A DNA stretch of 64,000 bases, taken from sequence record PQ666539. The stretch is one strand, 5' to 3'. The translations under genes were made by a program, and so were the position numbers. Positions 24,456 to 25,322 of the stretch are shown here, in pieces; position 1 is the stretch's first letter; every line of letters starts with the position of its first letter. The DNA is from Shigella phage sb1. Under the pieces are notes generated by a model. It was given only the letters and a program-made list of their open reading frames with translations. It did not search any database and was not told the DNA's origin.

Positions 24456-25322
24456 ATGTTCATTCAAGAACAAAAGAAATTGATTGATACCGTCGAAATT
24501 GGTAACGCTTCTACTGGTGATATCTTATTCGACGGTGGTAATAAAATTAATAGTGATTTTAACGCAATTTATAATGCGTTTGGCGATCAGCGCAAAATGG
24601 CAGTAGCAAATGGCACTGGAGCAGATGGCCAAATTATCCATGCTACTGGATATTATCAAAAGCACTCTATAGCAGAGTACGCAACTCCAGTAAAAGTTGG
24701 CACTAGACATGATATTGATACCTCTACTGTAGGTGTTAAAGTTATCATTGAACAAGGCGAACTTTGCGACTGTGTTGAATTTATTAACTCAAATGGATCA
24801 ATATCAGTTACTAATCCTTTAACAATTCAGGCTATTGATTCAATCAAAGGTGTTTCGGGTAATTTGGTAGTAACTAGCCCATATAGTAAAGTTACTTTAC
24901 GATGTATTTCATCTGATAATTCTACATCGGTTTGGAATTATTCTATTGAAAGTATGTTTGGGCAAAAGGAATCACCAGCTGAAGGTACATGGAATATTTC
25001 TACATCTGGATCAGTTGACATTCCACTATTTCACCGTACTGAATATAACATGGCTAAATTGTTAGTTACGTGCCAATCGATAGATGGAAGAAAAATTAAA
25101 ACAGCATAAATAAATATTCTTGTGGATAATGTTAATTCAGAGGTCATTTCTTCTGAATATGCTGTCATGCGGGTTGGAAATGAAACCGAAGAAGACGAAA
25201 TCGATAATATTGAATTTATTATTAAAACAAATTATGTAACAGCGACTATAAGTTCTTCAACTGTTGGCATGAGAGCAGCAGTTAAAGTTATCGCTACGCA
25301 GAAAATCGGGGTGGCTCAATAA
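24456..25322 (+). CDS. 9: gp9 baseplate wedge / long tail fibre socket, interrupted by in-frame TAA at 25107-25109
   Basis: 289 codons in one frame as T4 gp9; late promoter upstream. Confidence 0.85.

Follow-up and report, generated by a model that had tools for sequence, protein, structure and literature searches.

The 64,000-nucleotide stretch of Shigella phage sb1 DNA analysed here (the window) is very probably an ordinary segment of a T4-like genome overlaid by random, unselected G:C>T:A noise, and the in-frame TAA found in its gene 9 is one instance of that noise. We conclude that the gene 9 stop is not a biological feature. In the account favoured here, natural and mostly synonymous divergence would be overlaid by random transversions at ~1.2-1.3% of G:C pairs, and the conversion of GAA to TAA by a G>T change at position 25107 would be one such transversion, with no biological role.

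Gene 9 and the stop at codon 218

Gene 9 of this Tequatrovirus (T4-like) phage, which specifies the connector between the baseplate wedge and the long tail fibres, extends from 24456 to 25322 on the plus strand and comprises 288 codons and a stop. The gene had been named as such in a first-pass annotation made from the sequence alone, and the name is borne out by alignment, by collinearity with T4 gp9 structures and by gene order. Positions 24456..25322 align without gaps to gene 9 of phages Killian, UGKSEcP2 and T4T, and the gene is flanked by homologues of genes 8 and 10, as in these relatives. An alignment to gp9 had been proposed as a check, and with Glu set at codon 218 it proved collinear over 288 residues, residues 1-288 matching residues 1-288 of the T4 gp9 structures 1S2E, 1QEX and 5IV5 (E=1e-177). 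The T4 gene is 867 nt long in T4T and the T4 gp9 PDB chains have 288 aa, in agreement with the 289 codons, terminal TAA included, previously counted for the two ORFs together. The window and T4 proteins thus have the same length of 288 codons, the same slot between genes 8 and 10, and a collinear sequence; they differ in that codon 218 is GAA in T4 and TAA in the window, where the ORF is not intact as written. More than 600 phage records of the genus Tequatrovirus match this region, the closest of them (Killian and UGKSEcP2) being only ~98% identical and T4 95.8%.

The sequence at the site reads ...AAA ACA GCA TAA ATA AAT ATT CTT GTG GAT..., with the TAA at 25107-25109 on the plus strand, in frame at codon 218, just where it had been reported. 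The list of ORFs accordingly contains two entries, 24456..25109 (217 aa) and 25122..25322 (66 aa, with a GTG start). They share a frame, as first described, both start coordinates being divisible by 3, and they are separated by the TAA and four sense codons (I N I L), so that 217 + 1 + 4 + 66 codons give 288, or 289 with the terminal TAA. Codon 218 is GAA (Glu) in every relative aligned (Killian, UGKSEcP2 and T4T) and TAA in the window alone; the ancestral codon is GAA and the change is a G>T at 25107. Because the whole gene aligns without gaps and the relatives have GAA at this codon, the two ORFs are a single gene that one G>T change has divided, and their adjacency is not due to chance.

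The 5' fragment (24456..25106, plus strand, 217 aa) holds the N-terminal and middle parts of gp9 and the first half of its C-terminal domain. Residues 7-168 match the Pfam profile PF07880 (T4_gp9_10_N) with 238 bits, against a gathering cut-off of 25. Residues 169-217 match positions 1-54 of the 110 positions of PF23618 (T4_gp9_10_C), and positions 56-110 are matched after the stop, in the 3' fragment (25110..25322, plus strand, 70 codons and a stop). Neither polypeptide has a complete PF23618 domain; it is whole only when Glu is put in place of the stop. Long tail fibres are attached to gp9 through its C-terminal domain (PMC3004832). As written, the TAA would cut gp9 in the middle of this tail-fibre-binding domain, and because the cut falls midway through PF23618, the 217-residue product would lack half of a functional domain.

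A natural split or pseudogenisation, with gp9 either produced in two pieces by this lineage or lost from it, would account for the presence of two ORFs. The cut, however, lies inside a single folded domain, and the sequence upstream of the GTG at 25122, AAATAAATATTCTT, contains no Shine-Dalgarno-like motif that could serve as a ribosome-binding site; this GTG is merely the first possible start codon of the stretch and not a real start. Gene 9 is a single gene in every annotation of it inspected among the more than 600 matching records, and the flanks of the window gene show no decay beyond the same noise. A split would also have to be postulated for the major capsid, sheath, terminase and hub genes, described below, and we regard it as extremely improbable.

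Apart from the stop, the window gp9 has 7 private residue changes, of which all but one result from G:C>T:A substitutions. These six, all non-synonymous and on the plus strand, are at 24472 (P6Q), 24493 (G13V), 24765 (G104C), 25204 (A250D), 25213 (A253E) and 25219 (S255I). The G:C>T:A rate in gene 9 is 7 changes in 307 G:C sites. The gene has 37 G:C sites at which such a change yields a stop, and at the rate found for the window the probability of at least one stop among them is 0.36. A stop in gene 9 is therefore unsurprising at the noise level of the window.

The TAA variant was also sought in sequence collections. When the 81 nt around codon 218 were compared by megablast with 50,697 phage records, the best match was 80 of 81 and there was no perfect match. 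In exact-pattern scans the GAA variant was found in IMG/VR, and the exact TAA variant in none of IMG/VR, JGI metagenomes or GTDB genomes. An exact-protein look-up on public contigs likewise returned no product identical to the truncated gp9, or to gp8 or gp7 of the window.

Internal stops in other genes

The collinear 68 kb of Killian, UGKSEcP2 and T4T were used to project the ORFs of these relatives onto the window, and stop-bearing ORFs were named by collinearity from the T4T annotation. Most projected genes keep their exact length, yet many hold an in-frame stop: there are 24 in 21 of the 63 genes projected without indels, and two more were found by comparison with a single relative. The earlier description of gene 9 was thus right in its facts (the gene, the frame, the INIL codons and the length); its treatment of the stop as a notable property of this gene is not supported, since about one third of the window genes are hit alike.

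The next gene, gene 10, has the same kind of lesion, a TAA at codon 290 (26189..26191, plus strand) where the ancestral codon is TCA. The remaining stops identified by ORF projection are given for the span 5622..61982, single coordinates being the first window coordinate of the codon or, for minus-strand genes, the highest. Stops in minus-strand genes were found in e.5 (6041), e.6 (6355), e.8 (7755), 57A (12249), gene 3 (13506), uvsY (52143), alt.-3 (59588) and an alt-like gene (61451). Single stops were also found in gene 5 (17212), gene 6 (18418), gene 16 (33858), gene 18 (36125), uvsW.1 (51075), gene 51 (53609), gene 29 (55897) and gene 48 (57684), and two stops each in gene 17 (34975 and 35461), gene 22 (42042 and 42312) and gene 27 (54634 and 55075). 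Gene 23, for the major capsid protein, has a stop at 43617-43619 (TTA>TAA), and a small ORF on the minus strand has one at 9066-9068 (TAT>TAG).

The most frequent of the changes that created these stops is GAA>TAA, with 14 occurrences; GGA>TGA, GAG>TAG, TCA>TAA, TCG>TAG and TAC>TAA were also seen, together with the single TTA>TAA and TAT>TAG. Internal TAA, TGA and TAG codons stand in for Glu, Gly, Ser, Tyr and Leu. Because the TTA>TAA of gene 23 and the TAT>TAG at 9066-9068 are not G:C>T:A changes, there is a second, smaller source of error or of real variation in addition to the main one.

The stops fall in genes for the major capsid, sheath, terminase, portal-side scaffold, hub and baseplate. 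A phage with such stops could make no virions and form no plaques; no viable phage could carry them, and the sequence is therefore not that of a replicating population.

Gene 12, for the short tail fibre, is affected in another way. At 28275..28276 (plus strand) alignment to the relatives reveals a deletion of 1 nt, a C of a CCC run, which changes AAAAACCCAAAAA to AAAAACCAAAAA and shifts the frame. No other frameshift in the window seems to disrupt a gene. Many other gaps relative to the relatives were considered as frameshifts and rejected as compensating alignment noise in divergent stretches. Candidate stops in wac and in denV were likewise discarded as products of misalignment: wac has an intact ORF in the window, and the denV projection crosses a break in the alignment at which the window has ~490 nt of extra sequence. 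Small net differences in length from the relatives were noted at 1221-1689 and 11186-11373.

Spectrum of substitutions and absence of selection

Sites at which Killian, UGKSEcP2 and T4T agree and the window differs were taken as private substitutions, of which there are 709. The most frequent classes are T>C (125), G>T (116), A>G (107), C>A (101), C>T (81) and G>A (71); the rest are A>T (32), T>A (25), A>C (24), T>G (15), C>G (7) and G>C (5). G:C>T:A changes thus affect 217 of 18,393 G:C sites (1.18%), whereas the reverse change affects 39 of 33,468 A:T sites (0.12%), a tenfold, one-directional excess. There are ~290 G:C>T:A changes in the 64 kb, and measured against two relatives the class affects 1.34% of the G:C sites of the window.

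In coding sequence the classes differ greatly in their consequences. Among 187 coding G:C>T:A changes, 149 are non-synonymous, 23 create stops and only 15 are synonymous (92% non-synonymous or nonsense), and most lie at codon positions 1 and 2. Coding A:T>G:C transitions, by comparison, comprise 186 synonymous and 19 non-synonymous changes, and G:C>A:T transitions 92 and 37, respectively. For the transitions, this pattern resembles ordinary divergence shaped by purifying selection.

G:C>T:A changes occur in all 4-kb bins of the window, with roughly Poisson spacing, and the class is strand-symmetric. The tRNA cluster (1.5%), gene 23 (1.3%) and the window as a whole (1.34%) are affected at similar rates. 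Along the strand G>T and C>A changes are mixed (135 runs where 146 are expected, z=-1.3), and this runs test gave no sign of strand-coherent patches that would betray errors of single reads. Oxidation induced by shearing is said to prefer contexts of the CCG>CAG type, but the changes in the window have no context bias: no preference was found at the trinucleotide level or within +-7 nt, nor was there an extended motif of the sort expected from systematic miscalling at the modified cytosines of T-even DNA.

In the 63 genes projected without indels, a G>T or C>A change would create a stop at 2267 G:C sites. At the observed rate 26.7 stops in 20.2 genes are expected, and 24 in 21 were found. Because stops in essential virion genes have accumulated at the rate expected by chance, the G:C>T:A changes have never been exposed to selection.

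These results bear on two readings in which the TAA of gene 9 is real. The first is programmed recoding, by readthrough or by reassignment of the stop, such that full-length gp9 is still made. The two halves of the gene are in one frame, the downstream half is undegraded, and there is a modest hairpin (z=-2.3) 25 nt 3' to the stop. This weak hairpin, however, is identical in relatives that have GAA and hence is not tied to the stop, which is itself conserved in no relative. A reassigned codon is ruled out because a mixture of three stop codons replaces five amino acids and the same codons also end genes in the normal way, as TAA does at 25320-25322 in gene 9. No suppressor tRNA was found in the 64-kb window, which holds the tRNA cluster of the phage; all ten tRNAs have sense anticodons. 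The number of stops, moreover, is the neutral expectation of a noise process, and recoding has scarcely any probability.

The second is a genuine ochre mutation in gene 9, as in a spontaneous mutant that arose recently or in a conditional-lethal laboratory mutant grown on a host with a suppressor. A clean one-base change of GAA to TAA in an otherwise collinear gene has this appearance, and T4 baseplate genes are commonly studied with amber mutants, which have been employed for complementation (PMC3004832). Like the T4 amber and ochre baseplate mutants, gene 9 has a single-base stop in an essential morphogenetic gene. Those mutants, however, have one defined lesion and grow on suppressor hosts, and a laboratory mutant would have one or a few lesions of one stop type, whereas the window has 24-26 stops of three types in at least 21 genes, alongside ~150 missense changes, unselected and of the same class of mutation. 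None of its ten tRNA genes has a stop-reading anticodon. We therefore consider an ochre mutant very improbable.

Source of the G:C>T:A changes

Random noise of one mutational class remains our preferred explanation, and its likeliest source would be an error in obtaining the sequence, by way of oxidised guanine (8-oxoG) or an equivalent one-directional miscall. The substitution and its uniqueness, the spectrum, the absence of selection and the agreement with neutral expectation are results of the analysis, whereas the physical origin of the noise is inferred; it may lie in damage to the DNA, in the reading or in a later step. An excess of C>A and G>T is the documented signature of 8-oxoG produced in library preparation (Costello et al. 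2013, PMC3616734). The window shares with such artefacts the one-directional excess of these changes and its blindness to gene function and selection. The published artefacts, however, occur at low allele fraction (PMC3616734), whereas the changes seen here are in the final sequence. Because artefacts at low fraction should be voted out of a deep consensus, low coverage or an origin from a single molecule must be assumed; the error would have been carried into the consensus from too few reads or from one amplified molecule. The noise may also be of artificial (in-silico) origin.

A related reading is that the sequence is a faithful record of one real but dead phage DNA molecule, hypermutated by guanine oxidation. 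Candidate causes would be a mutator of the mutY/mutM type, strong oxidative stress, or a damaged template in single-molecule or single-virus amplification. G:C>T:A is the spectrum of 8-oxoG mispairing. Strand symmetry, Poisson-like spacing and freedom from context, all seen here, are what mutations fixed in a duplex would show, and the complete lack of selection fits a single unselected molecule. On the other side, ~290 changes in 64 kb would correspond to several hundred over a genome of ~168 kb, and such a number would be far above what a mutator host yields in one or a few cycles. Nor could a molecule of this kind dominate a population consensus. We judge this reading quite improbable. Were it true, ~1.3% of the G:C pairs of a T4-like phage would have become T:A in a 'lethal mutagenesis' that was either natural or imposed by the host, and single-molecule or single-virus sequencing would have caught the result.

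Implications for the window and other features

Gene 9 itself is an ordinary T4-type gp9, and the value of its stop is as a quality flag for the whole window. About one third of the genes, among them those for the major capsid, sheath, terminase, hub and baseplate, are broken or have spurious residue changes. Other findings from this window that depend on internal stops, 'split genes' or odd residues should be discounted, except where a residue differs from close relatives by a change other than G>T or C>A.

Several other differences from the relatives were observed. Between genes 18 and 19 the window has a 656-bp insertion that Killian, UGKSEcP2 and T4T lack, and an ORF of 218 aa (37724-38380, plus strand) fills it. 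This ORF has no Pfam match; by eye, its Cys-rich and 'DHK...N' motifs recall a free-standing HNH homing endonuclease, and it may have been degraded by the G:C>T:A noise.

The tRNA cluster (9561-10388, minus strand) has 10 genes, for Arg, Asn, Tyr, Met, Thr, Ser, Pro, Gly, Leu and Gln. It lacks the tRNA-His of UGKSEcP2 and the segB-like nuclease gene of T4T and Killian, differences that are natural mosaic variation. Two segments, 2349-3392 and 62315-63234, align poorly or not at all to Killian, UGKSEcP2 and T4T, with ~490 extra bases in the denV region and a divergent block in the second alt-like gene. They are probably mosaic replacements, as are usual in T-even phages. The Hoc-like gene hoc (47349-48767, minus strand) has the length found in Killian (472 aa) and is 294 nt shorter than in UGKSEcP2, equivalent to one Ig-like repeat fewer.
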